DNA from: Verrucomicrobiia bacterium
GTDB taxonomy: Bacteria; Verrucomicrobiota; Verrucomicrobiia; Palsa-1439
Reading direction: 5' to 3'
NCBI GenBank assembly: GCA_035577545.1
Contig: DATLVI010000009.1
Location: forward strand, 3,696 to 67,695
DNA: 64,000 bases
Each line of letters opens with the position of its first letter. The first letter of the stretch is position 1. The translations under genes were made by a program, and so were the position numbers. A model generated the notes under the pieces. That model saw nothing but the letters and a program-made list of their open reading frames with translations. It was not told where the DNA came from and did not search any database. Of this stretch, positions 744 to 25,250 are shown piece after piece.

Positions 744-1922
744 TCAGCCCTTGGTCAGCAGCGCGAGGTGTTTCGTGAGGTGACGATCGAGCAACTCCTC
801 ATGTAGGGCCGCGTGACGCTGCAGCTCTTCGATAATCCGTGGTTTCAAATTCGGGTCGGTCAGAACGGAACCGAAGGTAACATGTAGCAATTGCCTGCCT
901 GGTACCTCATCCAGGAACACGGCTTCCTCTTTCGGTCCGCTGAATTTCGGCAGTGCCGTGACTTGTGCGTCGGACGTCGAGATATGATAGCTGCGACGGT
1001 CGGTCGCGAAACGGCTGCGGCAAAACTCGACAATTTCGGCAAACAATTGTGGCACGGTTCGGGCCACGACGCGCAGGGCTTCGAGATAGCTTGTGCCGGC
1101 TGTTTTTACGTGGAGCAACTCGCCGCACACGCGCCCGACGATGGGGTAGGCCGCGAACTTGTCCGAGCCACTGTGAACGCTGATTTTGTAAGGGCCGCAA
1201 TGCTTCGCGATGGCGACGTGATCGCGCAGGGAAGCCTCGAATTTCTTCAGATCGCCCTTGTAGTCGATGCCCTTTTCAAAATCTCCGATGAACCGCGGTG
1301 CAACGCTGACAACATTGGGGACTTTGTGCCTTCGAAGTTCCAGTCCGATAAAGAGATGTTCCAGCGCGCTGGTCGGTTCATCCGTTTCATCCACGCTTAC
1401 CTCGATCTCAAACGGGCGCGAATCCATGACTTTGGCGATGTGACGGCCCATGACGCCGACGTGTTCCAGTGAGCCGCCGTATTTGACAGCGGCACCCTGC
1501 AATGTACGGCGGTCGAATTGCAGCATCCCCAAGGCAGGGACCTCGAACTTGCGACCCAGATATAAGCTCTCCAACTCGGAAGTCAGCGCACCTTTGCCGA
1601 CATGGGCAGAAGGGTCGATCGTGAAGAAACAGAAGCCCGCAGCTGCGGTGCGATCGACGTGCTCCGGCAATTTCAGATGGTCGGCGTCCGCGCCCCACGC
1701 GCTATTGCTGCCGAGCTCGTGAAGCGCTTCGGTTGCTGCCTTAATCACATCCTCCGGCTTCCGCCGGGTGCGTTCCATCTCACGGATGGATTGCTGCGCA
1801 AAAATCGGGGCGAAATCAAATTTACGGGCGGCTGCGAAATGCCCGGGCGTTGCCAATCCTAACCGATCACCGAAACCGAATGACTTCTTAAGACCCAGTG
1901 GAACAGGTAATGCTGTGTTCAT
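744..1922 (-). CDS. uxaE: Putative tagaturonate/fructuronate epimerase (UxaE family), 392 aa.
   Basis: The N-terminal SFGFGDRLGLATPGH motif and overall composition recall the UxaE family. It lies 4 bp upstream of uxaC on the same strand, consistent with an operon. The family assignment is from memory, not from a search. Confidence 0.55.
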   Translation of the reverse strand: MNTALPVPLGLKKSFGFGDRLGLATPGHFAAARKFDFAPIFAQQSIREMERTRRKPEDVIKAATEALHELGSNSAWGADADHLKLPEHVDRTAAAGFCFFTIDPSAHVGKGALTSELESLYLGRKFEVPALGMLQFDRRTLQGAAVKYGGSLEHVGVMGRHIAKVMDSRPFEIEVSVDETDEPTSALEHLFIGLELRRHKVPNVVSVAPRFIGDFEKGIDYKGDLKKFEASLRDHVAIAKHCGPYKISVHSGSDKFAAYPIVGRVCGELLHVKTAGTSYLEALRVVARTVPQLFAEIVEFCRSRFATDRRSYHISTSDAQVTALPKFSGPKEEAVFLDEVPGRQLLHVTFGSVLTDPNLKPRIIEELQRHAALHEELLDRHLTKHLALLTKG

Positions 1923-2034
1923 CGTAAATGGCAGTCAATTAAAGAGTACCGACAATGGTTGATATCTTACAACGCGGTGCTTTCCTCGCCAACAGGTTTC
2001 TGGTAGTATTTTGGAGCATTTTTGTGGAGACTAG

Positions 2035-2889
2035 ATGGCTGAATCCATGAGCACGCTGCCGAATGCGTTACATTTGCCCCCGCCGGGCCGCCCGCGCTGG
2101 GTGTGCGCGGAAAGTGCGCAGTTGGACCTACTCTACCTGGCTTGGGGGCATCGTGTTTACGGGCGCAACCCAATCCCCATGTCACGGCATCCGGGCTGGC
2201 ATTACGTGCTCGTCAGCCGGGGCAGCCCAACCCTGATACTGGAGCAGGAAGAAAGGGTCTTGAATCCGGGTGACTTCCTGGTGATTGATCCCGATTGTGC
2301 CAGCGGTTGGACGGATCGACCTGATGCGGTGTGTGACCTGCTCGTCTGGATCTGGCGTAGCGGTCCCCGATGTACGGAGTGCGTCGCGGCGCCAGGCACC
2401 TATCAACAGTGGACAATCGACCCGCGATTGCAGCACAAGCTGGAGCAACTCCACACGTTGTGTCGTCAGGAGGTGGAGCGGCCCGACGAACTGACGAAGC
2501 TGGCGATCGAACAGTTGCACATCGCGATTGATGTCACCGTTGCCCGGCTCATCCGTCCCAAGACGCAGCCCCCTGAACCATCCGTCCGGATGGAGCTGGC
2601 CGTTCGCTGGATGGCCCAGAACCTGGCGGAGCGGAACCCGGTCCGGGCTCTCTGTGAGTATCTGCAGATTTCCCCCGCCACGCTCGCCCGGATGTTTCAA
2701 ACTCATCATGGGGAATCGCCCGCGACGTATCATCAACGAATGAAGATGGCTCGGGCGCAAGAGCTGTTGGAGTCGAACCGCTTCTCGGTGAAGGAAATCG
2801 CCTACGCGCTGGGCTACAAGCACCCGAACGATTTCAGCCGGGCGTTCAAGCATTTTGTTGGCAAGAGCCCGAAGTCCGTCCAGTCATAG
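2035..2889 (+). CDS. AraC-family transcriptional regulator: N-terminal cupin-like sensor domain plus C-terminal AraC-type helix-turn-helix.
   Basis: The C-terminus (...RMFQTHHGESPATYHQRMKMARAQELL...KEIAYALGYKHPNDFSRAFKHFVGKSPKSVQS) is a typical AraC HTH. It is transcribed divergently from uxaE and upstream of exuT. Confidence 0.85.
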   Translation: MAESMSTLPNALHLPPPGRPRWVCAESAQLDLLYLAWGHRVYGRNPIPMSRHPGWHYVLVSRGSPTLILEQEERVLNPGDFLVIDPDCASGWTDRPDAVCDLLVWIWRSGPRCTECVAAPGTYQQWTIDPRLQHKLEQLHTLCRQEVERPDELTKLAIEQLHIAIDVTVARLIRPKTQPPEPSVRMELAVRWMAQNLAERNPVRALCEYLQISPATLARMFQTHHGESPATYHQRMKMARAQELLESNRFSVKEIAYALGYKHPNDFSRAFKHFVGKSPKSVQS

Positions 2890-3030
2890 TTCGCGCGACC
2901 AAGCATCTTCGCTTGTTGACGGATTGTGCGCGGCGCTTGACGGAATCCACCTTGACCGTGCTGGCGGCAATCCCTATCCTGTCAATCGCGGCTCGGTCAT
3001 ACAGCGATCACCAACAAGCCTTAAAAGCCC

Positions 3031-4635
3031 ATGATTGCCTCAGAAGCCCAAAGAACCGCCGGATCACGCAGTCAGAAGCCCGTGGGGCGTTATCGCTGGA
3101 CCATCTGTGCGCTGTTGTTCGCTGCGACGACCATTAACTACATGGATCGCAGTGTCCTCGGTGTGCTGGGTCCGACGCTGCAATACAAGGTTTTCAACTG
3201 GTCGGACAATGACTACGCCAGCATCAATATTGCTTTCAAAATCGCTTATGCGATCGGTATGTTGGTCATGGGTGCGATCATCGACAAACTTGGCACCCGG
3301 ATCGGGTACACGCTTTCGATTGCCATTTGGAGCATCTTCGGGATGTTGCACGCGGCGGTTCGCCCGGCCTTTGGTTTTGTCGGATTCTGCCTGGCCCGAT
3401 TTGGTCTCGGCTTTGGTGAGTCGGGTAATTTCCCTGCGGCCATCAAGACTGTCGGTGAATGGTTTCCCAAGAAGGAACGCGCCTTCGCCACGGGTATTTT
3501 TAATGCCGGTTCCAATGTCGGTGCGATTCTTGCGCCGTTGGTGATTCCGTTGGTGGTACTGCCGGACGGCACCAACTGGCAATTTGCCTTTCTCACCACC
3601 GGTGTGTTCAGCGCGGTGTGGGTCGTGCTTTGGCTGAAGTTTTACAAACGCCCGGAAGTACATCCGGATTTGTCCAAAGAGGAACTGGCTTACATCAACA
3701 GCGATTCGGTCGCCGAAACTTCCACCGGCAAAGTGTCGTGGTTGAAGGTCATTCCTCTCCGGGAAACGTGGGCATTCGCCGCCGTCAAAATGACGGATGC
3801 CGTGTGGTGGTTTTACCTGTTTTGGGGAGGGAAGTTTCTTTATGACAGGTTCGGGTTGAGCCTGAGTGGTCTCGCCGGCCCGATGATTACCATTTACGTC
3901 ATTGCGGATGGCGGAAGTGTCGCGGGCGGGTGGATGTCGTCCTTTTTCATCAAGAAGGGCTGGCCAGTGAACCGGGCACGTAAGACGACGCTCTTTATCT
4001 GCGCGCTGTTCATCCTGCCGGTGATGTTTGTGACGCAGATAGGCACACGGTTTGATATCAATGCGCGCTTTTTTGAGCGATTGCAGAACACCCCTTACAC
4101 CGTGGAACAGATCACTGTTGTGGATGGTAAGACAAGGAAGGAGAAGACCACGGAAACTGTGCCGGTGACGGCCGTTGCGGCCTTGCACACGCTGGATGGG
4201 AAGAGCTTTAACTCGGCGAAGGAGTTCTTTGCTGCCGTGGCCGGCGTTCTCGGCAAGGAACAGTATAAGAGCATGGAGCCCGCGCTAATGAAGAGCGCCC
4301 GTTCGGATAATTTTTATTGGATTTCCGTTCTGCTGATCGCCCTTGCTGCGGCTGGTCACCAGGCGTGGTCGGCCAACGTGTTTACTCTTGTCTCGGATGT
4401 ATTCCCAAAAAAGGCCACGGCATCCGTCACCGGTATTGGCGGCATGGTGGGGGCTGTGGCGGGCATCGTGGCGGATCGCAGCTTGGGCAAGGTGCTTACG
4501 TCGAGCGGTCCTTCCGGTTATTTCTTCGCCTTTTTGGTCGCCGGCTCGTGTTATCTCATCCTGCTGGGAGTGGCGCACGTGCTGATGCCGAAGATGACAC
4601 CGCTCGACGAGAACCTGCGGCGCGTCGCAGCATGA
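3031..4635 (+). CDS. exuT: MFS hexuronate transporter (ExuT-like), 534 aa, with an ~80-aa insertion loop.
   Basis: YRWTICALLFAATTINYMDRSVLGVLGP... and ...TVGEWFPKKERAFATGIFNAGSNVGAILAP match ExuT/ACS-family MFS signatures. A long hydrophilic insert (DINARFFERLQNTPYTVEQITVVDGKTRKEKTTETV...) sits between C-terminal transmembrane helices. Confidence 0.8.
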   Translation: MIASEAQRTAGSRSQKPVGRYRWTICALLFAATTINYMDRSVLGVLGPTLQYKVFNWSDNDYASINIAFKIAYAIGMLVMGAIIDKLGTRIGYTLSIAIWSIFGMLHAAVRPAFGFVGFCLARFGLGFGESGNFPAAIKTVGEWFPKKERAFATGIFNAGSNVGAILAPLVIPLVVLPDGTNWQFAFLTTGVFSAVWVVLWLKFYKRPEVHPDLSKEELAYINSDSVAETSTGKVSWLKVIPLRETWAFAAVKMTDAVWWFYLFWGGKFLYDRFGLSLSGLAGPMITIYVIADGGSVAGGWMSSFFIKKGWPVNRARKTTLFICALFILPVMFVTQIGTRFDINARFFERLQNTPYTVEQITVVDGKTRKEKTTETVPVTAVAALHTLDGKSFNSAKEFFAAVAGVLGKEQYKSMEPALMKSARSDNFYWISVLLIALAAAGHQAWSANVFTLVSDVFPKKATASVTGIGGMVGAVAGIVADRSLGKVLTSSGPSGYFFAFLVAGSCYLILLGVAHVLMPKMTPLDENLRRVAA

Positions 4636-4641
4636 GCCGCC

Positions 4642-5409
4642 CTAACGCCCCATCCAACCGCCGTCCACCGTGAGGATCGTCCCGTTGACATAGTCTGAGG
4701 CGCGGGACGCCAGAAAAACCACTGCACCCTGCAAGTCTTCGGGACGCCCCCAGCGCCCAACGGGAATCCGATCGAGGATCGCCTTTGATCGCACAGGGTC
4801 GGCCTGGAGGGCCGCAGTGTTGTCGGTTTCGATGTAACCCGGCGCAATCGCGTTGACGTTCACGCCCTTGCCAGCCCATTCGTTGGACAGTGCCATTGTC
4901 AATTGCGAGATCCCACCCTTGCTCGCGGCGTAGCCGGGGATGGTGATGCCACCCTGAAACGACAATAACGAGGCGGTGAAAATGATTTTCCCGCGTCCGC
5001 GCGCGAGCATTGGCTTGCCCAGTTCCCGGGCGAGGATGAATTGGGCGGAAAGATTCACTTCAATTACCTTGTCCCAATCTTCGTCGGAATGCTGGGCCGC
5101 CGGCGCGCGGCGAATCGTGCCGGCATTGTTGACCAGAATGTCAATCGGCGCATTCTCGACGATAACTCGGCGGACGAATTCGTAGAGCGACTCTCGATCG
5201 CCAAAGTCGCAACTGTACGCGGAGAATTTGCGTCCCAACGCGGTCACGCATTGCGCGACTTCTTCGCCGCTATCCTTGAGCGACGCACTCACGCCAATGA
5301 TGTCGGCCCCGGCAGCAGCTAGCGCTTCTGCAAAGGCCAGACCGATGCCACGACGGCAGCCGGTCACCAGCGCGGTCTGCCCGTCGAGTCGGAAGGGGTC
5401 CGGGATCAT
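4642..5409 (-). CDS. kduD: 2-dehydro-3-deoxy-D-gluconate 5-dehydrogenase (SDR family).
   Basis: True start is MIPDPFRLDGQTALVTGCRRGIGLAFA... The ATG at 5409 overlaps the kduI stop in an ATGA. TGxxxGIG Rossmann motif, YxASK catalytic motif and NAIAPGYIET all match KduD. The ORF track's upstream extension to 5589 is rejected. Confidence 0.85.
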   Translation of the reverse strand: MIPDPFRLDGQTALVTGCRRGIGLAFAEALAAAGADIIGVSASLKDSGEEVAQCVTALGRKFSAYSCDFGDRESLYEFVRRVIVENAPIDILVNNAGTIRRAPAAQHSDEDWDKVIEVNLSAQFILARELGKPMLARGRGKIIFTASLLSFQGGITIPGYAASKGGISQLTMALSNEWAGKGVNVNAIAPGYIETDNTAALQADPVRSKAILDRIPVGRWGRPEDLQGAVVFLASRASDYVNGTILTVDGGWMGR

Positions 5410-6236
5410 CGCAAATCCTTCACGGCGATCTGGTCCATGTCGGTGAACTCCTGGTTCTCCCCGCCCATGGCCCACACAAAGCCGTAGTTTCGCGTTCCCG
5501 CGCCGCAGTGGATGGACCACGGCGGCGATAGCACGGCCTCGCCATTGTGCACCACCAGGTGACGCGTTTCCTGTGCGGTGCCCATGCAATGAAATACGGC
5601 GGCGTCCGGGGCGACGTCAATGTACAAGTAAACTTCCGACCGCCGGGCGTGTGTATGCGGCGGCATCGTGTTCCAGATGCTGCCTTCCTTGAGAATCGTG
5701 AAACCCATCACCAACTGACAACTCGTGATTCCCTTGGTGTGAATGTATTTGAGGATCGTCCGTTGGTTGGCATCCCGTTGTGAGCCAAGTTCCACGGGTT
5801 CCGCGTCGGCTTCGGTTGCCAGCCGCGTCGGGTGAGACGTGTGCGCCGGGTAACTGATGAGGTAAAACCAGGCCGAGTCCTTCGGATCCGCGCTGCTGAA
5901 ATCAATCTTCTGGCTTCCGCGTCCGATATACAGGCAGGAACGCTTCGGCAGCGCGAATTCTTTGCCATCGACGGTGATTGTGCCCTTGCCGCCGAGGTTG
6001 AGCACGCCAATCTCGCGCCGCTCGGTAAAGTAGGTCGCCGCCAATTCCTTGGAGGCTTCAAGCGCGAGCTTTTGCGTCGTAGGGACAATCCCGCCGACAA
6101 TCGCCCGGTCCACGTCGGTGTAGACCAGTTGCACCGTTCCCGGTTGAAACAGATTCTCAACGAGGTAGTTGGCGCGCAGTTCGGCGGTCGTCATCCGCAT
6201 CATCCGCGTCGCATCGGCAACAGTTCTGGTTTGCAT
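5406..6236 (-). CDS. kduI: 5-dehydro-4-deoxy-D-glucuronate (4-deoxy-L-threo-5-hexosulose-uronate) ketol-isomerase.
   Basis: Near full-length colinear similarity to KduI: LVENLFQPG...DRAIVGGIVP...RREIGVLNLGG.GTITVDG...WNTMPPHTHARRSEVYLY...HCMGTAQETRHLVVHN.EAVLSPPWSIHCGAGT..YGFVWAMGGENQEFTDMDQIAVKDLR. Confidence 0.9.
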   Translation of the reverse strand: MQTRTVADATRMMRMTTAELRANYLVENLFQPGTVQLVYTDVDRAIVGGIVPTTQKLALEASKELAATYFTERREIGVLNLGGKGTITVDGKEFALPKRSCLYIGRGSQKIDFSSADPKDSAWFYLISYPAHTSHPTRLATEADAEPVELGSQRDANQRTILKYIHTKGITSCQLVMGFTILKEGSIWNTMPPHTHARRSEVYLYIDVAPDAAVFHCMGTAQETRHLVVHNGEAVLSPPWSIHCGAGTRNYGFVWAMGGENQEFTDMDQIAVKDLR

Positions 6237-6297
6237 GGCAGTCCTTTTTTAAGACTCACGAGGCTATCAGGTTCGTGTTCCCATCGCAATACGAGGC

Positions 6298-7506
6298 TCA
6301 GGGGACCGGCGTTGGTGTGGCGATGTTCAGGGGCGGTTCGGGGCCGGGTGGCCAGGCGAAATGGTAAACCTCGCTGCCGGCCAGCAAGAACGCACCGACG
6401 CCATACACTTCGGTATTGGTTGCGCTTAATGACGCCGCGTTGGCTCCGATTGGTTGTACAAATCCAAGTCGACCGCTGGCATCGACGCAGCGCACGAGCC
6501 CTTGCCAGGCTTTGCGGATTGCCGGTTCGTAGTCCGCTCGAGTCAACAGTTTTTGGTTCACTCCCCAGGCCAGCGCGTACAGAATGAAGCCGCTCCCGCT
6601 GCTCTCCGGTGCGGGAAAACTGCCTGGGTCCAGGAGGCTTGCGCGCCAGAGGCCGTCTTCACCTTGGAGATCCACGAGGCGCGCCGCCATTTCCCTGAGC
6701 TGGGCAACATATCGCTGGCGGCCGGAATAATCGGCGGGCATGTATTGCAGCACGCGCACCAGCCCGCCCATCACCCAGCCATTTCCCCGCGACCAGAAGA
6801 TCTTTTTGCCATTGGCTTCGCGTTTCGTCAGGAAACGATCGTCGCGGTAATAGAGATGTTCCTGGTTGTCGTAGAGATGGTCGGAGGTCCGCCACCAGCG
6901 ATCATTCATAAAATCCATGTATTTCCTGTCTCCGGTGGCTGCGGAAAGCCGCGCCCACATGGGTGGTGACATGAACAGCGCGTCGCACCAAACCCACTTT
7001 TCCTGTGCGTGGGGCTTGGTAAAATCCAAATCGTTTTCATCCGGGGGCGGTGCTGCCATGATTTGGTCACAACGTTGTTTGGCCGGCTCGAGCATCTGGA
7101 AATCGTGATGTTGCAGGAAGAGTTCGAGATACGTCTGCAACACACAGTGATTGTCCGCGTGGTAGACAAGATTGGTAGAGGGCCTCCAATCGTTTTTCCG
7201 TCCCATCTCCATCATTGCGTCGTGATACCGGGAATCGTTGGTGGAGACCGACGCCAGCGCCATCATGCCGGCGTAGTATGCGCCCTGTGTCCAGTCCGTC
7301 GCGCGATGCGCACTTGGGTTGGCCAGTTGCCAGTCGGCAACCCGTTTCATGGTTGTCAGCACCGCTTTCTGGGTGATCTCACTCGGGATCGTCACAGTGG
7401 GCGAAGCCCTGTTCGTGGAGACGGATTCACTGCCCTGGGTTTCGACAACCGGCATCGATGCAGCGGCGAGGATGGCTGTTATCAAGCAGCGGGACGCAAA
7501 ATGCAT
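6298..7506 (-). CDS. GH105 unsaturated rhamnogalacturonyl hydrolase (YteR/YesR-like), secreted.
   Basis: Start chosen at MHFASRCLITAILAAASMPV (signal peptide). Motifs DWTQGAYYAG, DNQEHLYYRDDRF, WSRGNGWVMGGL and FVQPIGANAA are typical of GH105. The ORF track's extension to 7998 lacks a plausible N-terminus. Confidence 0.85.
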   Translation of the reverse strand: MHFASRCLITAILAAASMPVVETQGSESVSTNRASPTVTIPSEITQKAVLTTMKRVADWQLANPSAHRATDWTQGAYYAGMMALASVSTNDSRYHDAMMEMGRKNDWRPSTNLVYHADNHCVLQTYLELFLQHHDFQMLEPAKQRCDQIMAAPPPDENDLDFTKPHAQEKWVWCDALFMSPPMWARLSAATGDRKYMDFMNDRWWRTSDHLYDNQEHLYYRDDRFLTKREANGKKIFWSRGNGWVMGGLVRVLQYMPADYSGRQRYVAQLREMAARLVDLQGEDGLWRASLLDPGSFPAPESSGSGFILYALAWGVNQKLLTRADYEPAIRKAWQGLVRCVDASGRLGFVQPIGANAASLSATNTEVYGVGAFLLAGSEVYHFAWPPGPEPPLNIATPTPVP

Positions 7507-7587: not shown

Positions 7588-9489
7588 ATGAAGGTGACCC
7601 GCGCCGCGCTTTTGGGAGTGGCCTTGGCAATATTTGCGAGCGCGCTCTGGCTGCATTGGCCGTCCGTGAACGGCGGGTTCCTGACGCGGATGGACGATGA
7701 CGAATACCTGCGACAGTCTGTGCGTTGGCAGGGGTTGAGCTGGGGCGCGGTCCGCTGGGCGTTTACGAGCACGGAGCCGTATTATCAACCACTGCCGCGC
7801 CTCTCGCATGTCCTCGACTATCAGCTCTGGGGAACGAACGCGCAGGGACACCACGCAACCAGCGTCGTGAACCATGCGCTCAATGCCGCGATCGTGTTCG
7901 GTTTTCTCAGGACAATACTCGGCGTCGTGGCGGGCTCGCTGACGATGCGCGAGCGGTTGGCGCTGGCAATCGGTGTGGCAGTGGTGTTCGCGATTCATCC
8001 GCTGCAGGTTGAATCGGTTGCGTGGATGTCAGGGCGGACGCAGCTATTGTGCACGACATTCGGGATCGGCAGTCTCTGGGCATACGTCGCCGGTACGCGA
8101 CGTTGGTTGGTCTGGGCGATGTTCATTGCGGCGTTACTCTGCAAACCGCTGGCCGTGTCGTTACCTTTCGCGATGCTGGCGCTAGATTACCTTTTGGCGC
8201 GACGGGACGGGGAACCGAAATGGGGACGGTTGTTGCGACGGAACGCGGGCCTGATCGCGGTAGGCGTGGCGGCAGCGGTGACGACGATCATCACAGAATC
8301 TCGTACCGGCGGCCTGCTCGTGCCCCTGGAGACGATCCGGCCGTCGCAACGCATGCTCCTGATGGCACAGAGCCTGGTGTTCTACCCATGCAAACTGGCC
8401 TGGCCGACACAGCTGTCGCCTTACTATCCGCGGCCAGTGAACATTTCAATGTTCCAACCATTCGCCTTCGCGTCGGTGCTGGGTGTGACGGTCATCACGG
8501 CGTTGTGCATTTGGCGCGGACGCCGCGCACCGGCGCTGATGGCAGGGTGGGGGACGTATGTGCTGTTCGTACTGCCGGTGTCGGGGTTGACGCCGACGGG
8601 TGGACAGGCCGTGGCGGACCGGTACGCTTACCTGGCCATGCTGCCCTTGCTCGTCTTGGCGGGCGGTGCGGTGGTGTGGTTGTGGAGGCGCAGTCCGATG
8701 ATTGGGCGATGCGGGCTGGTTTGTTTGTTGGTGGGTGAACTATTTTTCTTTGGAATGCGCACGCGGGCGCAGACACTGGTCTGGCGCAATGACGAGACGC
8801 TGTGGCGCGGTGTGCTGGCGCAGTTCCCGAATTCCGATTTGGCCAATGAGATGCTGGCGCAGGCGTTGTTGAATGAGAATCGGATTCCCGAAGCGCTCGT
8901 ACATGCGCAACACGCCGTAGAAGTTGCACCGTCCGCCGAAACGCACAGGAACCTGGGGATCGCGCTGACGCAAGCCGGCGAGATTCAAGAGGCCACTGAT
9001 GAATTCAATCTGGCGCTGCAGCTCAAGCCCGATATGGCCGACGCGCACTGTCGTCTGGGGGTCTTCTTACAGCGTGAAGGTAAGTACGAGGAGGCAATCA
9101 GACATTACGAACAGGCGTTGCAAACGGACCCCGATTACGCCGACGCCCATTACAATTTAGGAACCGCACTCGTACGACTGGATCGCATGACAGAGGCGAT
9201 GGAGCAGTGGGAGGAAGCCTTACGCATCGATCCGGATTACGCCGAGGCGCACGCTAATCTCGGGGTTGCTCTGGAGCAAGCTGGCAAGCTGGAGGACGCG
9301 GTTGCGCATTACGAGCAGGCGCTGCGAGTCAGGCCCGACCTGGCCGCAGTGCATTACGATCTCGGAAATGTCCTGGCTCGGCTGGGCCGGATGCCGGCAG
9401 CGATCCAGCAGTATGGCGAGGCATTACGGCTCAACCCTGATTATACCGAGGCACGGAATGCGCTGGTACGACTACATACGGTGCAGTAG
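7588..9489 (+). CDS. Multi-pass membrane protein with C-terminal TPR repeats (TMTC-like; putative GT-C fold protein glycosyltransferase).
   Basis: Start chosen at MKVTRAALLGVALAIFASALW (first transmembrane helix). An acidic FLTRMDDDEY loop follows TM1, then about 10 hydrophobic helices, then repeated TPR units (...EAIRHYEQALQTDPDYADAHYNLG...). It is a paralog of the next gene. Confidence 0.65.
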   Translation: MKVTRAALLGVALAIFASALWLHWPSVNGGFLTRMDDDEYLRQSVRWQGLSWGAVRWAFTSTEPYYQPLPRLSHVLDYQLWGTNAQGHHATSVVNHALNAAIVFGFLRTILGVVAGSLTMRERLALAIGVAVVFAIHPLQVESVAWMSGRTQLLCTTFGIGSLWAYVAGTRRWLVWAMFIAALLCKPLAVSLPFAMLALDYLLARRDGEPKWGRLLRRNAGLIAVGVAAAVTTIITESRTGGLLVPLETIRPSQRMLLMAQSLVFYPCKLAWPTQLSPYYPRPVNISMFQPFAFASVLGVTVITALCIWRGRRAPALMAGWGTYVLFVLPVSGLTPTGGQAVADRYAYLAMLPLLVLAGGAVVWLWRRSPMIGRCGLVCLLVGELFFFGMRTRAQTLVWRNDETLWRGVLAQFPNSDLANEMLAQALLNENRIPEALVHAQHAVEVAPSAETHRNLGIALTQAGEIQEATDEFNLALQLKPDMADAHCRLGVFLQREGKYEEAIRHYEQALQTDPDYADAHYNLGTALVRLDRMTEAMEQWEEALRIDPDYAEAHANLGVALEQAGKLEDAVAHYEQALRVRPDLAAVHYDLGNVLARLGRMPAAIQQYGEALRLNPDYTEARNALVRLHTVQ

Positions 9490-11172
9490 ATGCTTGGGAA
9501 GCTTATGAAGAACGCGTGGAGATCCTACGGCTGGGGCTGTGCGCTAATTGTTTTGCTGACACTCATCACGTACATACCCGCGATGCGGGGGGGCTTTGTC
9601 TTTGACGACTACGCGCTGCTCGTCAACGACCCTTTGATCAAGGTCAGCGACGGGTTGCAACGGTTCTGGTTTACGACCGAAGCCACGGAATACTATCCAC
9701 TGTCGTGGAGTTTATGGTGGGCCGAGTGGCGGTTATGGGGTGATCACGCGATCGGGTACCACGTCGCCAACGTCCTTTTGCACTCGGCCAATGCCATCCT
9801 GGTGTGGATTATCCTACGACATCTCAAAATTCCGGGAGCCTTGGTGGCGGGACTGGTTTTTGCTCTGCACCCGGTGAACGTCGCTACAGTTGCCTGGATC
9901 ACCGAGCAGAAGAACACAATGTCGATGTTCTTCTACGCCGTGGCGATCCTTTCATATTTGCGTTTCGATGAGGAAGGTAGCTGGCGTTGGTTTAATCTAT
10001 CGTTGGCGGCGTTTTTACTGGCCTTGCTAAGCAAGACGGCGATCGTCATGTTGCCCGTCGTCCTGCTGGGTTGTGTGTGGTGGATGCACGGTCGTTTGCG
10101 GGTGAAAGACTTTCTCTACAGTGTACCGTTCTTTGCCCTTTCGCTCATCATGGGATTGGTGAATGTGTGGTTTGAGTATCACCGTGCGACGGAAGGGCTC
10201 GGAGTCCACGCAACTGGTTTCGCAACTCGCCTGGCAACTGCTGGCTGGGTACCGTGGTTTTACCTATCCAAGGCGTTGCTGCCGATTGACCTAATGGTGG
10301 TATATCCCAAATGGCAGGTCAATACCTCCAATTGGATTTCCTACATGCCAGGAATCATTCTGATTGGTGGGCTCGTGATGTTTTGGTGGAAACGCCAAAC
10401 GTGGGGACGGTCGTTATTATTCGGACTGGGATACTTTGTCGTGACGCTTTTCCCGGTGTTGGGTTTTTTTTATCAACCATTTTATCGGCACGCATTCGTC
10501 GCCGATCATTGGCAGTACTACTCCATTATCGGAGTTATCGCTTTCATGGTTGCCGCCGGGGAGAGGATCTGCCGTCGCTTGGGCGAGCATGGGTTGTATT
10601 GGGGGGGGGTGGGTTCCGTGGCGGTGCTGTTGGTGTTGGGTGCGGCCACTTGGCGACGTGGGCATGTCTATGCTGACGATGTAACACTCTGGCGGGACAA
10701 CGTGGCAAGGAATCCGGCTCCTTGGCCATACAATAACCTGGGATGCGCCTTGCAGCGAACGGGCCGATTTAACGAGGCGATCCACCAGTTCGACCAGGCG
10801 TTGCGGCTCAATCCCGAGTACGCCGATGCCCATTGCAACCTGGGAAATGTTTTATCGCAGACGGGCAGAACCGAGGAGGCAATGGCGGAGTGGGAGCTGG
10901 CGTTACGGTTCAAGCCTGACTATGCGCAGGCGCACTACAATTTGGGCCTCGGTCTGGCCCGGCAAGGCAGGTTACCGGAGGCGATGGGGCATTGGGAGCA
11001 GGCCTTGCGGATCAAGCCCCATTATGCTGAGGCGCACTACAACCTCGGAGTCGCCCTGGAACAGACGGGCAGGGTGAGGGAAGCCGCTGGGCACTACGAG
11101 CAAGCGCTAAGGATTCGCCCCGATTACGAACAAGCTCGAAACCGGCTCACGCGATTGCAGACCGTCCAGTAA
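9490..11172 (+). CDS. Multi-pass membrane protein with C-terminal TPR repeats (TMTC-like; putative GT-C glycosyltransferase), tandem paralog.
   Basis: An FVFDDYALLVNDPLI motif follows TM1, then many transmembrane helices, then a C-terminal TPR array ending ...RPDYEQARNRLTRLQTVQ (compare the paralog's ...NPDYTEARNALVRLHTVQ). The ATG directly abuts the previous stop codon. Confidence 0.65.
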   Translation: MLGKLMKNAWRSYGWGCALIVLLTLITYIPAMRGGFVFDDYALLVNDPLIKVSDGLQRFWFTTEATEYYPLSWSLWWAEWRLWGDHAIGYHVANVLLHSANAILVWIILRHLKIPGALVAGLVFALHPVNVATVAWITEQKNTMSMFFYAVAILSYLRFDEEGSWRWFNLSLAAFLLALLSKTAIVMLPVVLLGCVWWMHGRLRVKDFLYSVPFFALSLIMGLVNVWFEYHRATEGLGVHATGFATRLATAGWVPWFYLSKALLPIDLMVVYPKWQVNTSNWISYMPGIILIGGLVMFWWKRQTWGRSLLFGLGYFVVTLFPVLGFFYQPFYRHAFVADHWQYYSIIGVIAFMVAAGERICRRLGEHGLYWGGVGSVAVLLVLGAATWRRGHVYADDVTLWRDNVARNPAPWPYNNLGCALQRTGRFNEAIHQFDQALRLNPEYADAHCNLGNVLSQTGRTEEAMAEWELALRFKPDYAQAHYNLGLGLARQGRLPEAMGHWEQALRIKPHYAEAHYNLGVALEQTGRVREAAGHYEQALRIRPDYEQARNRLTRLQTVQ

Positions 11173-11209
11173 CCACCGTCAGACACCCGTCCTTTGTTGA
11201 ACAAATCAA

Positions 11210-11241
11210 AAGGGCGTCCCGTTTTTCAACGGGACGCCCTT
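11210..11241. terminator. GC-rich hairpin between convergent genes (AAGGGCGTCCCG-N8-CGGGACGCCCTT), likely a terminator for the minus-strand PEP-CTERM gene and possibly bidirectional.
   Basis: A perfect 12-bp inverted repeat is read directly from the sequence. There is a U-rich run on the minus-strand side. Confidence 0.5.
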
Positions 11242-11270
11242 CGAGGTATTCGTAGGTTTTACTCGCCGGT

Positions 11271-12230
11271 TTAGCTGCGACGGCGGCGTGCCAAGGTGAG
11301 CATCAAGCCAAGGCCGGCGCCGACCAACATCACCGTGGAAGGTTCGGGAACTGTAGTGAGATCTACCTTGAATAGGCTGGTATCGATCTGCGACGCGCCG
11401 GTTGCGCTGCCGGCTGGACGAATGTCGAACGTATCGTAGGACACACTTGTAATCGAAGGATCAACAAAGGTATCCGAGATGGATCCCGTGCCACCGATAT
11501 TGTCACCCGACATCGAGCTGACAACCTGCAAACCACCGGCAGTCATCGTCAGATCGTAAACGAAGGTGTACTGGGTACCAACAGTATAACCGGTCGTGCC
11601 ACTGGCAACGCCATTCGTAAGGGCCGTCCAGTTGCCGGATGTACCCAAGAACGCGCCGGAGCCAGCAAGCCCCCACTTCCTTAATTGGAAGGAATTGCCG
11701 TTGCCCATGGTTGAGGACATGTTCATGAACATGGCAAAACTATTCGTGTAATTGGCACTTTGAATACCACCGTCGGCAGTGTTTCGTGAGCCGTTTGGCG
11801 TCAGACCAAGAGCCAGCAAGAAACCCTGGCTTGTGTTGACTGTGATTGTGCCGTTCGGGGTGAACTGCCAAGTAAGCTTGAGTTCATCCCCAATATTGGC
11901 CAACGTGACCGGGGTCGTCGGCTGCGTGAAATACGTATACATCGAGAGGGAAGTTGTGGGTACGGCACCTCGCAGATCGCCAGGGCCGGCGACAGTCAAG
12001 CTCGCGCTGTTGGATGCAAACCAAGCGGACTCGAGGTTGCCATCGGAATCAGCATCGGTTGCTGATGTGCCGTTGTTCTCCGCGTACGTCGGCGACGCCG
12101 GATCCGTACGGGTACCATCCTGCCACGTATCATTGACCAGAGTAGTAGTAGTCGCATGACTGGACAGCGCCAAGGCGCACGTCGCCGTGACTATGAGTGT
12201 AACCGCTAGAAATGAATACCTTTTAGACAT
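11271..12230 (-). CDS. PEP-CTERM sorting-domain protein (exosortase substrate). Its N-terminal ~260-aa module is homologous to the N-termini of three pectinase giants.
   Basis: The C-terminus ...VPEPSTVMLVGAGLGLMLTLARRRRS is the canonical PEP motif plus transmembrane helix plus Arg cluster. The ATG at 12230 gives MSKRYSFLAVTLIVTATCALALSSHA (signal peptide); the track's upstream start is a GTG. Confidence 0.85.
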   Translation of the reverse strand: MSKRYSFLAVTLIVTATCALALSSHATTTTLVNDTWQDGTRTDPASPTYAENNGTSATDADSDGNLESAWFASNSASLTVAGPGDLRGAVPTTSLSMYTYFTQPTTPVTLANIGDELKLTWQFTPNGTITVNTSQGFLLALGLTPNGSRNTADGGIQSANYTNSFAMFMNMSSTMGNGNSFQLRKWGLAGSGAFLGTSGNWTALTNGVASGTTGYTVGTQYTFVYDLTMTAGGLQVVSSMSGDNIGGTGSISDTFVDPSITSVSYDTFDIRPAGSATGASQIDTSLFKVDLTTVPEPSTVMLVGAGLGLMLTLARRRRS

Positions 12231-12593
12231 GATCCTCACCCTTTCCCGTGTTTGAACTCGCTATACCCTTTAACATCGCAAACGCTGTAATCACTTACAA
12301 CGTTCTCCATCGGACTCTCGCCCAACTCGCTATTGGGCCGATAAACTACTTTACTAGAATATGAAATTTGCAGTGCATTTGCAAGACATACCAGCCGACC
12401 GCGCGCGCCTATTTAGTAGCATCTTGCGTCATTGAATGGTCTGGCAAGTATCGTAATGCGAAAGGGTTAAATGAGTGAGGGGTTTCATCCAAATCTCGAT
12501 CTTGCGAGCAAGCGTTTGCAGACGGCCGCAGACGTGTCCGCGGCGGTTGAAAGGATCGCCTCTACAACCGGTAACGGTGCATGTAAAAAGCAG

Positions 12594-12686: not shown

Positions 12687-15542
12687 CTACGGCACCAAGA
12701 CGCGGACGCGGTAGTATCGCGTTGCGCCGGTCGCTCCGCCCGGATCCACCATGTTGGTCAGTGTGCCAAGGCCGGTGCCGCCACTCAGGATGTTGGTCAC
12801 GTTGGCGGTTACGAAGGTATTGCTGTTGTAGTTGCCACCCGTGCCGGTGGTGAACTCCAGTACGTTCGTGCGGGAGGCGGGGCCACCCGTGTAAGTGCTG
12901 TCGCCACTCGCGCCCAGGTAATCCACGCGGATGTCTGCACCACCATTGGTCTTGGAGATGCTCGTGATGTGAACATACGCCCCGCTGCTGGTCGGATTAA
13001 ATCCTGCCAGGAACTCGTTCGTATTATTCATGCCATCACCATCCGGGTCCGCCGTGCCAAGCGCATTACCACCGCTCAGGCCATAATGCGTCGCCCACGT
13101 GGTGCTGTAGGGATCGCCGCCGCCACCGGCAGTTACGACCAGCAAGATCCGTGTAGTGGCCGGATCATTGGAAACTGTGGCGGAGAATCCGCCGGGCAAC
13201 GTGCCCACAGCCAGGGCACTCGACACCAGATTGGAGTAGGTGAACAGCGTGTAAACATTCGCGCCGAATCCGGCGCCACCGGTGACGTTGACCGTGCCGG
13301 CCAGCGTCAAACTATTGCTCACACCTACCGAGTCCTGGAGCGTGCCCAAGTGATAGTTGAGCACCGCGGAGGAACCAAACACGAGATTGTTGCTGAAGAG
13401 GACAGTACCGACGGCGGCACCGATTCCCGGAGAGAATATGCCAAGGTTGGTAACATTGCCGGCGACTGTGCCACCCCCGCGTAGGGTGGCGTTATTGGTC
13501 ACCGTCAAGCCGCCGCTATTGAAATTGTGATAGCCGGTGCCGCCCGCCGCCATTTCGTAGACTGCCCCGCTGGCCGCCGTGCCGTCACCGACTGCAAAGG
13601 TGCCGGGGATATCGGGGTGGCTATCGACGGTGGCGCCACCAGCACTCAGTACACCACCGGAGAAGGTCACCGTATTAGTCGGTCGAACGCGCATAAACCC
13701 GACGGAAAGTGCGCCGCCATTAAGCACGAGAGAATTGCTTATTGCGGCACTGTTGCCGACGTTCAGATTAGTGATGGTCACCGATGCGTTGGTGATGGTC
13801 AGCACATTGCCAAAGGTGTTACTTGCGGCGCCGATGTTGAGCGAACCGGTGTTGACGACAATGGCCGCGGCGCCCGGGCCGCCAAACTTCACCGTGTTGA
13901 ACACCGAGGTTATGTTGTTGCCGATACTGAAGGTGCCGTTGTTGTAGAGCTTGCCGCCGTCAAAGACGCCCAGGAAATTCGTGCCCCCAGTGCCCGTACC
14001 GACAATGATGTGATTGGTGTAGTTGGCCACCGAGGAGGAATTGGACCAGACCGACGAGGCGCCGATCACAATGCCCGTATTCAGCGAACTGTTTGCGCCA
14101 ATTGTGCCGTTACCCGACAGCAACACGCCGCCGTTGGTGACGATCAGGTTATTGCCACCCGTACCGCCGAGGTTGACGCCACCGACATTGTCGGAGGTAA
14201 GAGGGTTGAGGAGCGTGCCGTTGTCAACGCGCAAGATGTCCATCGAGCCAGCCACGTTGATGCTGTTGGAGTTGCCGGCAGGAACCCCGAGACTGATGCT
14301 ATTGGTTACTACCAGAGTCCCTTTGCCGTTGACGGAAATGGTTTCTATCGGTCCTTGCGGATTCAGGAAGTTACAGGACATAAATGCGTTCGTGACTATG
14401 ATGAAGTTGTCTTGATGGTTCGTGTTGACTGACGAACTTCGCACCACGACAAACGACCCGGTGCTCGTCAGACCTGTCCCGCCCATGACGAAGCCATTGT
14501 GGATGTTGCTGGAATTGTTCCCATACGCAAATGTGCCGCCGCAACTGATAAAAGCGCCATCTTGAACGGTGAAGAGGTTATTGGTGGCACCCGCGCCACC
14601 CAGACCGATCTGAACACTACCTTGCGCGATCAACTGCGAGCCGGCGCCAGTGACGACTCCGGTGTTGAAGCTGGCAGTGCCGCCGAAGAGAAAGGAGCCA
14701 GTTTCGAAAAGTTTGGCGCCGTTGGAGATGATCAATGAGCCGCCATTTCCGCTGAACTTGAGATCCCCCGCGGAGGTTATCGTTGCGCCGCTGGTCGGAC
14801 CTGAGAGAAGCATGGAATTGTTGGTAAGGCCAATGCCGTTACCGACCGTAATCGTGCCGTCGACGAAGAGTCTGCCACCATTCGTGATGATCAACCGATT
14901 CAACCCGCTGGATGAGCCGATGGTAAGGGTACTGCCGCTGCCTGTGCCGCCGTCCGTGTACACACCATTGCCGGTGATGACCAGCGTGCCGACCGAATTG
15001 CTACTTGCTCCGACGATGCCCGCGTCAGCCGCCACCGTTCCGTTGGTGACAACGAGTGTACCAGTACAGAATAAACCGGGAACGTTCGTCACAGAATCCC
15101 CGATACGAAGTTGGCCGGTGACAGCCGTCACGCCGGCAACGGCGAGCGTCCCGCCCGTTATAAAAACTGTTGATATAGAATCTGCGACGCCCACACGGAA
15201 GGTATTTGTGACGCGATACGTCAATCCGTTGGGATTGATCGTAACCACGCCGGTGTGGTTGGAGATGACAGTGCTCAGGAGGTTGGGTGTGTTGGCGCCG
15301 AGACTTACCGTGATGCTCGTCTCGTTTGTGAAAAAAGTTACGTCGCCGTCCACCGGTGCCAAACCCGTATCCCAGTTCGCCGCAGTGCCAAAAGTCCCAC
15401 TGTTCACGATCCAGGTTTCGTTCGTCGCCCGTGCCGTGTTGCTACCCAATGCCAAGCCCAGTGCCAAAAGCAACGCTCCGCCCAGAAGATTTTTGGTAAG
15501 TTTCCGAAAAGTGTGCCCGACCCCTGATAGCTGATTCATCAT
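12687..15542 (-). CDS. Large secreted beta-helical / PATR (autotransporter-associated beta-strand repeat) protein of 951 aa with the conserved RYYRVR-type C-terminal domain. No catalytic domain recognised.
   Basis: Signal peptide MMNQLSGVGHTFRKLTKNLLGGALLLALGLALGSNTARA. The rest is an extremely Gly/Thr/Asn/Ser-rich repeat body. The C-terminus reads ...DPDGDGMNNTNEFLAGFNPTSSG...ATRYYRVRVLVP. Confidence 0.8.
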   Translation of the reverse strand: MMNQLSGVGHTFRKLTKNLLGGALLLALGLALGSNTARATNETWIVNSGTFGTAANWDTGLAPVDGDVTFFTNETSITVSLGANTPNLLSTVISNHTGVVTINPNGLTYRVTNTFRVGVADSISTVFITGGTLAVAGVTAVTGQLRIGDSVTNVPGLFCTGTLVVTNGTVAADAGIVGASSNSVGTLVITGNGVYTDGGTGSGSTLTIGSSSGLNRLIITNGGRLFVDGTITVGNGIGLTNNSMLLSGPTSGATITSAGDLKFSGNGGSLIISNGAKLFETGSFLFGGTASFNTGVVTGAGSQLIAQGSVQIGLGGAGATNNLFTVQDGAFISCGGTFAYGNNSSNIHNGFVMGGTGLTSTGSFVVVRSSSVNTNHQDNFIIVTNAFMSCNFLNPQGPIETISVNGKGTLVVTNSISLGVPAGNSNSINVAGSMDILRVDNGTLLNPLTSDNVGGVNLGGTGGNNLIVTNGGVLLSGNGTIGANSSLNTGIVIGASSVWSNSSSVANYTNHIIVGTGTGGTNFLGVFDGGKLYNNGTFSIGNNITSVFNTVKFGGPGAAAIVVNTGSLNIGAASNTFGNVLTITNASVTITNLNVGNSAAISNSLVLNGGALSVGFMRVRPTNTVTFSGGVLSAGGATVDSHPDIPGTFAVGDGTAASGAVYEMAAGGTGYHNFNSGGLTVTNNATLRGGGTVAGNVTNLGIFSPGIGAAVGTVLFSNNLVFGSSAVLNYHLGTLQDSVGVSNSLTLAGTVNVTGGAGFGANVYTLFTYSNLVSSALAVGTLPGGFSATVSNDPATTRILLVVTAGGGGDPYSTTWATHYGLSGGNALGTADPDGDGMNNTNEFLAGFNPTSSGAYVHITSISKTNGGADIRVDYLGASGDSTYTGGPASRTNVLEFTTGTGGNYNSNTFVTANVTNILSGGTGLGTLTNMVDPGGATGATRYYRVRVLVP

Positions 15543-16454
15543 AGACCTCGCCCTTTGATTTTGATCTCTTGTCCGGCCTCACTGACCACGTTATGCCTGC
15601 AAGGCTTTCTGCACCCGTCGTTTCAGAACAAACCCCCGTCGGAGTGTATGCTCTTGTGCCTAAAAGTATGCATTCGCTCTGCCAGGTTTGCAAGTGATTT
15701 GCAGCGGAAACCCTTGAATTTCAGGAGCGTATTCTTTCAGTGAAGAAAGATGCTAGGTCGCGTTTCCAGCGCGGTATGGGAAAGGTCTCCGTATACACGC
15801 AAGCGAACAAGTTTGGAAACGTTAGCATGTTTTCGCAAATCGACTGCGCAATTCTGTCGCAACCATCCAAAGATGGGAAGGTGGCGCACACCCCCGCGAT
15901 TTGAGGTTCTTTTGTTGACCATTCGCCTTCAGGGTGAGCTGATGAGGTGCTCTTTCTGGGGCGTAGAATGCCGGGTCAAGTTAACTGCGGATCGAACTAC
16001 ACTATTCCTTGGAAGAAGAGATCGAATGGACATGCTGAGAATAGCGCAGCGGGAGCGATTGTAGTGTATTAGATGGGAGATGCTATCGAGTTAGCCAGAA
16101 CAAATGACAAGAACATCTGCTTGGAGTATTCGCGCCGGAGTTGCGGTTTGGCGGGGGATTGTGGAGCGCCACCATGGCCGTAGATGCAGCACAACATGCG
16201 CTTCCCGAGCAGGGGTGTGCATCTGAATAAAATCGCCCACTTCGGAGCCTAGCATATCTGCTCACTGAGCGAACAAGCTCTTCAAATCCATGCAAAACGA
16301 ACCTTAAATTCTTGCAAACGCCGCGAAAAGGGTGCAGGTTAAATAGCCGTGGCCCGTTGTGTTTGGAATGAGAACGTGCCGCTAAACGGGTCGCAAAACA
16401 AGCCAAGACGGAATGTGGATGAGGTCATCTGAAACACGGAGGCACTGGAGATAT

Positions 16455-17174
16455 ATGCAGTCCAATCAAACCAAAAAGAACGCGTTTACCCTCATTGAAC
16501 TGCTGGTGGTCATTGCGATTATCGGCATCTTGGCGGCGATGTTGCTACCCGCGCTGAACAAGGCGCGCCAGAAAGGTTACCAAGCCTCTTGTATCTCTAA
16601 TGTGAAGCAGTGGGGACTGGCCTTAAACATGTATGCTGACGATTGGGGCGGCACGATGTTCTACGACGCAGGCGGTGTGCACTTTACTGACAACAATACC
16701 CCTCTGATGCAGTACATAGGAAGTAGCAATGCTGTGGAGAAGTTACGTGTCATGAGAGCGTGTCCGGCAAGAGTGGCGCGCATGAACCCTCCAAGTCTCG
16801 CCTATAATATGCCCGTTGGGACCTATCGCAAGGGCTTGGCTTATAAGGATGCGGATACTGCCCCGTCGCCTGGGTTCACTAACCCTTTTTACGGTACCCC
16901 CACGAATCCCTATTGGCCGAACCTGACGTCCTGCCCCAACCCCTCTCAATTCGTGTTGCTGATTGAGTGCTACAACACCATGCATAGCGGTCAGTTTGCC
17001 GGCAAGGTGAGCTCGCCGGCGTCGGGTGCAGGTGACCCTGTCCCGCCAATCCAATGGCATAATTCGGTTGTCAATTGTCTTTTTGGTGATTTCCACGCCG
17101 AAGCGCAAACCATGCAGCAGGTAACGGCAATGGATTCTGGCAGTCCAGCCAACCCGGCGTCCCAACTGAATTAG
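16455..17174 (+). CDS. Prepilin-type N-terminal cleavage/methylation domain protein with a DUF1559 (H-X9-DG-like) C-terminal region.
   Basis: [39 protein letters not shown] is a class III (type IV pilin/pseudopilin) leader. ...[15 protein letters not shown] resembles the H-X9-DG region. This family is expanded in Planctomycetes and Verrucomicrobia. Confidence 0.8.
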
Positions 17175-25212: not shown

Positions 25213-25250
25213 AACATTCGCGCGGATGTAGAGAATAGGAGCACGTGGAT

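Follow-up and report, generated by a model that had tools for sequence, protein, structure and literature searches.

Genes A and B adjoin each other on the forward strand of a Verrucomicrobia pectin-degradation locus and quite probably encode paralogous inner-membrane GT-C(A) glycosyltransferases with TPR domains, probably directed to proteins; fold, topology, motif conservation, paralogy, family size and genomic contexts are shown, and we infer the enzymatic activity, the donor type and the protein acceptor. They were analysed in a window of 64,000 nucleotides, to which all coordinates refer, and all features of A and B given below lie on the forward strand.

Identification of the gene pair

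Gene A (7588..9489) was recognised from its open reading frame, Pfam matches and orthologs, and encodes a GT-C/TPR protein of 633 aa. The source annotation places its start at 7501, while orthologs of 633 aa (P0122, P0124 and P0137) favour 7588. Gene B (9490..11172) encodes a GT-C/TPR protein of 560 aa when read from 9490, or of 555 aa from the ATG at 9505. This second ATG (MKNAW...) is probably the true start, because the source annotation and all orthologs begin there. BLASTP placed A and B in a single alignment across the membrane and TPR parts with 31% identity (E 4e-63), which bears out the claim of the earlier note that the same-strand reading frames 7588-9489 and 9490-11172 are adjacent paralogs. 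The pair forms its own two-gene unit, divergent from a GH88 gene and convergent with a PEP-CTERM gene over a 15-bp hairpin. The hairpin is G+C-rich, separates the stop codons at which gene B and the PEP-CTERM gene converge (11209..11242, unstranded), and is likely to be the terminator which closes the A-B unit.

Topology and fold

The membrane domain covers approximately aa 1-392 in A (7588-8763) and aa 1-393 in B (9490-10668). Hydropathy together with the helices of the AF2 model gave 11 membrane helices, and a further helix of weak hydrophobicity within the long outer loop 4. The many-helix membrane part proposed earlier is therefore present, but with 11 helices in place of about 10. Lysine and arginine make up 25% of the residues in the cytoplasmic loops against 8% in the outer loops, and by the positive-inside rule the TPR domain is therefore placed outside. 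The C-terminal TPR arrays proposed for both proteins were recovered by Pfam TPR_1, TPR_2 and TPR_11 with E values of 1e-31 to 1e-48. The array of A (aa 405-633; 8800-9486) comprises about 6 repeats and that of B (aa 410-560; 10717-11169) 4 repeats and a cap; in the model of B the four repeats are followed by a capping helix, and A has two more 34-residue blocks.

The AF2 model of B (aa 1-405), limited to the membrane domain and built on an alignment of 133 sequences, reached a pLDDT of 92.6 and a pTM of 0.92. It superseded an earlier run of full-length B on a shallow alignment of 28 sequences, in which the membrane domain was poor (pLDDT 68). Foldseek with the new model returned a probability of 1.00 for Pmt4, STT3, PglB, ArnT and AftB. 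Among the matches listed, the top one was a protein O-mannosyltransferase, and ArnT, AftA, AftB, AftD and Emb were also present. As modelled, the multi-helix core superposes on known GT-C enzymes, which points to the GT-C(A) fold. The fold by itself does not tell protein-modifying GT-C enzymes from those modifying lipids or glycans. An O-antigen-ligase-like or transporter fold, named beforehand as the outcome that would speak against a GT-C enzyme, was not seen with AF2 and Foldseek, so the GT-C reading stands; no ligase appeared among the structural matches listed, and Wzy_C matched only one of 11 sequences, at E 0.26. An N-oligosaccharyltransferase of the STT3/PglB type was also rejected, as there was no STT3 Pfam match and no WWDxG motif in any frame of the window.

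Sequence searches gave a narrower picture. B matched Pfam PMT_2 (PF13231) with 35 bits, the cut-off being 26.1, and nine of ten B-type relatives also matched this model. The membrane domain of A alone had no Pfam match, and Pfam PMT (PF02366), MIR and PMT_4TMC were matched neither by A and B nor by the B-type relatives. Against PDB chains, sequence and then profile searches with the membrane domain of B yielded chance matches or none. No NCBIfam model matched the membrane domains, and the full-length matches, all under cut-off, reflected generic TPR similarity.

Conserved residues and the two subfamilies

Both acidic strings quoted earlier for the loop after the first helix are present, FLTRMDDDEY at residues 31-40 of A and FVFDDYALLVNDP at residues 36-48 of B. 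The DDD of A (D36-D38; 7693..7701) in outer loop 1 aligns with the invariant catalytic aspartate of the family. In B the alignment places the GT-C catalytic motif of the same loop at D39-D40 (FVFDDY; 9604..9609). Residue conservation was analysed in 133 sequences, 69 of A-type and 64 of B-type. The D39 column is aspartate in all 133, while D40 is kept in 64/64 B-type and 52/69 A-type sequences. The other residues invariant over the whole set are H91, H98, F124, A125, H127, P128, W136, Y258, P322, G325 and Y343, and K182 is kept in 131. The alignment also revealed a Y-x6-P-x7-P motif in outer loop 4 of both proteins, Y266...P281 in A (8383..8430) and Y258-x6-P265-x7-P273 in B (10261..10308; loop at aa 229-281).

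The two subfamilies share only about 25% identity and differ at distinct positions. Just ahead of helix 10, A has Arg345 (VADR; 8620..8622), which is arginine in 69/69 A-type sequences and corresponds to the donor-phosphate-binding arginine of TMTC, STT3 and PglB (PMC7801869). In the alignment B has His340 (VADH; 10507..10509) where A-type proteins and TMTCs carry arginine, and this histidine, found in 61/64 B-type sequences, is a subfamily signature. Conserved positions in loop 2 are split between A-type and B-type as well, with Gly/Thr against Glu/Lys. The two copies probably differ in donor or acceptor. To judge from sequence, the histidine of the B-type in place of the expected phosphate-binding arginine counts against the GT-C glycosyltransferase reading.

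Comparison with known GT-C enzymes

TMTC1-4, the eukaryotic ER protein O-mannosyltransferases for cadherins, resemble A and B in having 11 helices, a cytoplasmic N-terminus and a non-cytoplasmic C-terminal TPR array. The layout of 11 helices, DD and TPR is described for TMTCs together with DD and SYRP in loop 1, FAVHP in helix 3, a lysine after helix 5 and the arginine of AERV before helix 10 (PMC7801869). The A/B family shares the DD and Y-x-P-L of loop 1 (YYPL or YQPL where TMTCs have SYRP), FA(V/I/L)HP in helix 3 and the lysine after helix 5; A(D/E)R before helix 10 is common to the A-type only, the B-type having histidine. This likeness was judged from the described motifs; A and B differ in being bacterial and periplasm-facing and in having 4-6 TPRs. 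The DUF1736 domain of TMTCs (PF08409), situated in the loop that joins helices 7 and 8, was not matched by A or B at E<=10, nor by ten B-type relatives and A at E<=1. In its place A and B have a loop 4 of about 53 residues, the human TMTC segment being about 75 residues (PMC7801869, Table 3). The TMTC/PMT-type architecture of the earlier note is thus upheld in the GT-C fold, the 11 helices, the DD motif, the TPR array and the PMT_2 match of B, but not in any DUF1736, PMT, MIR or PMT_4TMC match.

Among bacterial enzymes TfpW, the pilin O-arabinofuranosyltransferase of Pseudomonas aeruginosa, offers a precedent, since pilin is not O-glycosylated without it (bioRxiv 10.1101/2020.04.19.049825). 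By its published description, this GT-C enzyme of similar size (646 aa) is like A and B in its 11 predicted helices, its DDx in periplasmic loop 1, its Tyr/Pro motif in loop 4 and its periplasmic C-terminal TPR domain. A proline motif of this kind also occurs in loop 4 of TfpW and Emb proteins (bioRxiv 10.1101/2020.04.19.049825); the TfpW form, Y-x6-P-F-x7-P, is one residue off the Y-x6-P-x7-P of A and B. The tfpW gene immediately follows pilA, which encodes its substrate, while A-B is flanked by GH88 and PEP-CTERM genes, and the nearest gene for a pilin-like N_methyl protein (16413-17174) is 5 kb off with two genes intervening. PMT/POMT enzymes (GT39, including actinobacterial Pmt) also have an acidic motif in loop 1, and one relative is named 'glycosyltransferase family 39 protein' at NCBI, but the MIR domain of PMT/POMT is replaced by the TPR domain. 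For the N-terminal domains of TMTCs, HHpred identified ArnT (GT83, the lipid A aminoarabinose transferase; 5ezm/5f15) as the closest homologue of solved structure, and ArnT has 13 helices (PMC7801869) against 11 in A and B.

Proposed function

In the predicted topology A and B span the inner membrane with 11 helices; the N-terminus is cytoplasmic, the catalytic aspartate lies in the first periplasmic loop, and the TPR domain, of 6 repeats in A and 4 in B, projects into the periplasm. By analogy with characterised GT-C enzymes, they would draw a sugar from a donor linked to polyprenyl phosphate, on the outer side of the inner membrane, and transfer it to an acceptor. Against this reading, a gene for a polyprenyl-phosphate sugar synthase was not seen in the scanned parts of the window, and the missing matches of the membrane domain of A to Pfam, of the membrane-domain profile to PDB chains and of A and B to DUF1736 count the same way. 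The TPR domain would most likely select or hold a protein acceptor, as has been suggested for both TMTC1-4 and TfpW.

ArnT has a lipid acceptor and no TPR domain, and Pfam PMT_2 takes in ArnT-like enzymes as well. The acceptor of A and B might instead be lipid A, LPS core, a cell-envelope glycan or another non-protein molecule, with the TPR domain serving only to dock the enzymes to envelope machinery. The PMT_2 match is consistent with this, as are ArnT, AftA, AftB, AftD and Emb among the structural matches listed, and the loop-4 proline motif resembles the Emb motif which regulates glycan chain length (bioRxiv 10.1101/2020.04.19.049825). Such an acceptor is nevertheless rather unlikely, as the leading structural match listed modifies proteins, the TPR-bearing characterised GT-C enzymes considered (TMTC1-4 and TfpW) do so too, and genes for LPS or polysaccharide synthesis were not found near A-B. 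That A and B have lost catalysis and serve as GT-C-like scaffolds, in the manner of PIG-U or GAB1, is very improbable in view of a catalytic aspartate and about a dozen loop residues which are invariant in 133 sequences from two subfamilies of such low identity. A protein-directed, active glycosyltransferase remains the preferred reading for both.

Neighbouring genes as candidate acceptors

The giant neighbours of A-B are GH28/CE8 pectinases with RYYRVR ends, and the earlier note had proposed that A and B glycosylate these secreted proteins. A-B lies near them, and the arrangement is retained in close relatives (L002-L006). The giants carry Ser/Thr-rich segments and Ig/PKD beta-sandwich domains, which speak for them as acceptors; the cadherin domains on which TMTCs act are likewise beta-sandwiches (PMC7801869, PMC11292533). 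In a few unrelated loci, among them L022 and L029, a RYYRVR-ending reading frame also stands beside a GT-C gene. The three sequon-rich strings quoted from the giants are present, but no excess over composition was found: the N-x-S/T density of 1.7-2.8 per 100 aa equals that of same-composition shuffles (z -1.2 to +2.3) in proteins with 7-10% asparagine and 19-24% serine plus threonine, and sequon enrichment was rejected as evidence. N-x-S/T sequons are the acceptor sites of STT3/PglB-type enzymes and not of PMT/TMTC O-mannosyltransferases, and they are irrelevant to the enzyme class of A and B. Further, A-B is transcribed as a separate unit, synteny with the giants is limited to close relatives, whose A orthologs show 70-86% identity, and B is absent from three of the giant-syntenic loci. 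The check for conserved proximity to RYYRVR-module genes also failed: a RYYRVR-ending reading frame lies within 6 kb in only 9/77 B-type and 1/20 A-type loci, and around B-type genes 2 such frames were proximal against 6 distal, giving no proximity bias. Distant paralogs sit in unrelated contexts, for example among housekeeping or microcompartment genes. Glycosylation of the giants by A and B is therefore improbable, and a specific tie to the pectinases, with A and B as their dedicated accessory, is not supported.

The immediate neighbour of B encodes a PEP-CTERM protein of 322 aa (11271..12239, reverse strand) with 15.5% threonine, 11.2% serine and a signal-peptide-like N-terminus, and may be regarded as a candidate partner. 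It is possible, though doubtful, that, prior to sorting by exosortase, B-type enzymes modify the adjoining small Ser/Thr-rich PEP-CTERM protein on the periplasmic side. A PEP-CTERM reading frame lies within 600 bp of the GT-C frame in 17/77 B-type loci, and likewise in this window; 18 of the 25 flanking PEP-CTERM frames are directly adjacent to the GT-C frame, and around B-type genes 14 were proximal against 3 distal. The adjacent PEP-CTERM proteins represent 8 sequence families and their GT-C partners 15 groups at 80% identity. In L024, L033, L037 and L057 the gene immediately upstream of a B-type gene encodes a homolog of the PEP-CTERM protein of the window, with 40-44% identity. PEP-CTERM proteins are enriched in threonine, serine and asparagine as possible glycan attachment residues (Haft et al., PMC1569441), and this enrichment fits them as glycan acceptors. 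Against the pairing, the counts reflect proximity, taken without a genome-wide background, in loci from related genomes that are not independent samples. The adjacent PEP-CTERM gene is missing in 60/77 B-type loci and was present in only 1/20 A-type loci, and this one locus, with 77% identity, is probably the ortholog of the window. In the window gene B and the PEP-CTERM gene are convergent and not co-transcribed.

The wider proposal, that B-type genes and their PEP-CTERM neighbours are enzyme-substrate cassettes in which the TPR domain of each paralog is tuned to its own neighbour, is likewise tentative and on balance unlikely. If true, PEP-CTERM proteins would receive O-glycans from a TMTC-like bacterial family that has much expanded, on the periplasmic side of the inner membrane and ahead of sorting by exosortase. 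Such cassettes would join two systems so far without experimental connection and account for the Thr/Ser/Asn enrichment of PEP-CTERM proteins. The recurrent pairing offers a concrete and testable candidate substrate class for a very large family.

Size and distribution of the family

At E<=1e-3 the family was matched by 109,288 cluster representatives, and at the stricter E<=1e-30 by 28,124; for ten distant representatives the member lists gave almost no names and no taxonomy. Databases already label the family as TPR protein or protein O-mannosyltransferase, and the source names of relatives are 'protein O-mannosyl-transferase' or 'glycosyltransferase family 39 protein'. Literature searches on bacterial TMTC-like or GT39+TPR proteins and on Verrucomicrobia O-mannosyltransferases found nothing specific. 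A and B are ordinary members of this very large, multi-copy and already annotated family in this Verrucomicrobia lineage, and at face value the result is a routine annotation of two further members of an abundant GT-C/TPR family. Among the best 80 of 424 loci, single genomes carried 3 to 8 copies, and tandem copies were present in 35/77 loci.

Genes A and B encode paralogous GT-C membrane proteins with TPR arrays

The two genes are adjacent on the same strand, gene A at 7588-9489 (ORF of 633 aa) and gene B at 9490-11172 (ORF of 560 aa). In the source annotation (ENA ERZ27256708 k141_981692, a 209-kb contig of a Verrucomicrobiae MAG) their products are 662 and 555 aa long, respectively. The start of A at 7588 is favoured by its orthologs, which are 633 aa long, and that of B at the second ATG, 9505, by the start annotated in the source and by the consensus of the family, MKNAW. 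The proteins align over the whole length of both with 31% identity (E 4e-63) and are thus paralogs. Both carry a canonical TPR array at the C-terminus. In the first model of B, this part is composed of four repeats followed by a capping helix (pLDDT >90). The array of A has two 34-residue blocks more.

Hydropathy and the helices of the model gave 11 membrane helices; one more helix, weakly hydrophobic, lies within the 53 residues that link helices 7 and 8. Lysine and arginine make up 25% of the short cytoplasmic loops vs 8% of the outer loops, which places the N-terminus in the cytoplasm, with the DD loop and the TPR array on the periplasmic side. The membrane domain of B passed Pfam PMT_2 (35 bits, cut-off 26.1); that of A by itself had no Pfam match, and sequence searches of PDB chains found no match. 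The GT-C architecture proposed in the earlier note is borne out by the PMT_2 match of B, the loop-1 DD and the membrane helices with a C-terminal TPR array.

Conserved residues and relation to TMTC and TfpW

Residue conservation analysis showed that D39, H91, H98, F124, A125, H127, P128, W136, Y258, P322, G325 and Y343 are invariant in 133/133 sequences, and K182 is kept in 131/133. The conserved positions line up with the motifs described for TMTC by Eisenhaber et al. (PMC7801869), namely DD and S-Y-R-P in loop 1, LLFAVHP in helix 3, a lysine after helix 5 and the arginine of AERV before helix 10. A/B proteins have YYPL and YQPL in place of S-Y-R-P, and FALHP and FAIHP in place of LLFAVHP. 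The AERV arginine, at the donor-phosphate-binding position, is matched by arginine in 69/69 A-type sequences (Arg345 of A, 8620-8622), whereas 61/64 B-type sequences have histidine (His340 of B, 10507-10509). Loop 2 carries glycine/threonine in A-type vs glutamic acid/lysine in B-type proteins (E139/K141 of B). These subfamily signatures suggest that the two types may use different donors or acceptors. DUF1736, the Pfam model of the TMTC loop, had no match in these proteins, and by that criterion they are TMTC-like rather than members of TMTC. Both A and B possess Y-x6-P-x7-P in loop 4, where TfpW has the similar Y-x6-P-F-x7-P.

Fold, topology and residue conservation are established by these data, and activity, donor and acceptor are predicted. 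On the best-supported reading, A and B would be active, periplasm-facing GT-C glycosyltransferases dependent on polyprenyl-phosphate sugars. Their TPR domains would hold a protein, either a partner or the acceptor, as in the eukaryotic O-mannosyltransferases TMTC1-4 and the Pseudomonas aeruginosa pilin glycosyltransferase TfpW.

Family size and distribution

At E<=1e-3 the membrane-domain profile matched 109,288 cluster representatives, of which 28,124 reached E<=1e-30. In species-representative genomes, just two B-type peptide patterns sufficed to pick up 424 loci. To the best 80 of these 424, single MAGs contribute 3 to 8 copies; two or more copies stand side by side in 35/77 loci. Relatives are named 'tetratricopeptide repeat protein', 'protein O-mannosyl-transferase' or 'glycosyltransferase family 39 protein' in the sources. 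The family is already known and annotated in bacteria, with a putative function, and A and B are further members. One B-type gene, 64% identical to Verrucomicrobia proteins, lies on a 4.5-kb contig binned as Thiobacillaceae (L038, JBKQNQ010000423.1), most likely a binning error.

PEP-CTERM proteins adjoin some B-type genes

Directly after B lies a gene for a PEP-CTERM protein of 322 aa (11271-12239, minus strand) with 15.5% threonine and 11.2% serine. PEP-CTERM proteins are rich in threonine, serine and asparagine, the usual glycan-bearing residues, and Verrucomicrobium spinosum has 65 of them (Haft et al., PMC1569441). PEP-CTERM ORFs are present at 23/77 B-type loci, and 18/25 such ORFs lie <500 bp from a GT-C ORF. 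They directly adjoin the GT-C gene at 17/77 loci (L009, L016, L024, L027, L033, L037, L041, L045, L050, L054, L057, L058, L061, L065, L066, L068 and L074), with a near vs far count of 14 to 3. The adjoining proteins, of 200-430 aa, represent 8 families, and the GT-C proteins beside them form 15 groups at 80% identity; the pattern is not explained by descent of a single copied locus. Homologs of the window protein (40-44% identity) are directly upstream of B-type genes at four other loci in three other genomes. A-type loci do not show the pattern, with a PEP-CTERM neighbour at 1/20. The 22% adjacency at B-type loci, counted in related genomes which are non-independent samples, is far above the V. 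spinosum density, which we take to be about 1% of genes, and offers a lead to possible partners.

The pectin locus and the secreted giants

The window holds a pectin or galacturonan utilisation locus (744-7470 and 17453-49068). One flank of A-B encodes UxaE, an AraC regulator, an MFS transporter, a KduD-like SDR dehydrogenase, KduI and GH88; UxaC lies just beyond the window edge on the source contig. On the other flank, GH28 polygalacturonases and CE8 pectinesterases follow one another, and several carry fused Ig, PKD or PATR domains. At least four GH28 enzymes and two pectinesterases were counted by Pfam outside the three giants at 25245-28904, 29089-32829 and 36859-43863.

Eight large secreted ORFs, mostly GH28/CE8 pectinases, end in a RYYR(V/I)R...P-type tail: 12687-15542 on the minus strand, and 17453-21886, 22003-25212, 25245-28904, 29089-32829, 36859-40653, 40666-43863 and a phospholipase C (52670-55540, C-terminus FYRVHITYP) on the plus strand. 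Seven of them have the RYYR(V/I)R(L/V)(V/A)P ending, six of these (17453-43863) in the longer form NYxDxGGxTNxxxRYYR(V/I)RL(V/A)P. The tail is also found on unrelated large ORFs of other Verrucomicrobiia genomes (L021, L022, L027, L029, L032, L042, L050 and L057) and has the appearance of a C-terminal module, specific to this lineage, for sorting or anchoring.

The earlier note had further proposed that A and B glycosylate these giants, and this link found no support in proximity, synteny or transcription units. A-B forms its own unit. It runs divergently to GH88, and between its stop and that of the convergent PEP-CTERM gene lies a perfect hairpin of 15 bp, rich in G+C (11209-11242; T-run on the minus strand). 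The arrangement is kept only in close relatives (A orthologs of 70-86% identity). At three syntenic loci (L004, L005 and L006; A orthologs of 70-83% identity), A stands alone between the KduI/GH88 side and a convergent small protein, so B was recently gained or lost at this site. Two A-type proteins that share 64% and 59% identity are encoded near housekeeping genes, which include microcompartment and isoprenoid genes. RYYRVR-ending ORFs lie within 6 kb at 9/77 B-type loci, 2 in the near and 6 in the far half of the flanks, and at 1/20 A-type metagenome loci; proximity thus does not favour the giants as substrates. Nor does it count against them, since a general glycosylation system may act on proteins encoded elsewhere.

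The sequon argument fails. N-x-S/T sequons number 1.7-2.8 per 100 residues in the giants, equal to shuffled sequences of the same composition (z -1.2 to +2.3), and the high asparagine, threonine, serine and glycine content of the giants may reflect beta-helix and beta-sandwich domains. N-sequons serve as acceptors for STT3/PglB enzymes and not for PMT/TMTC O-mannosyltransferases, and no STT3 signature was present by Pfam in A, B and the B-type relatives or by a WWDxG search of the window.

Just ahead of the first giant is a prepilin-type N_methyl gene (16413-17174, plus strand), which occupies the same position in all syntenic relatives and matches DUF1559 weakly, at 20.1 bits against a cut-off of 23.3. 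Two other large proteins on the plus strand (32774-36862 and 55883-58135) share a different C-terminus, ...GYFLGSNTSGFVVFEPTP and ...GLFLGTNDSGFVTIMPSP, which may represent another type of C-terminal module.
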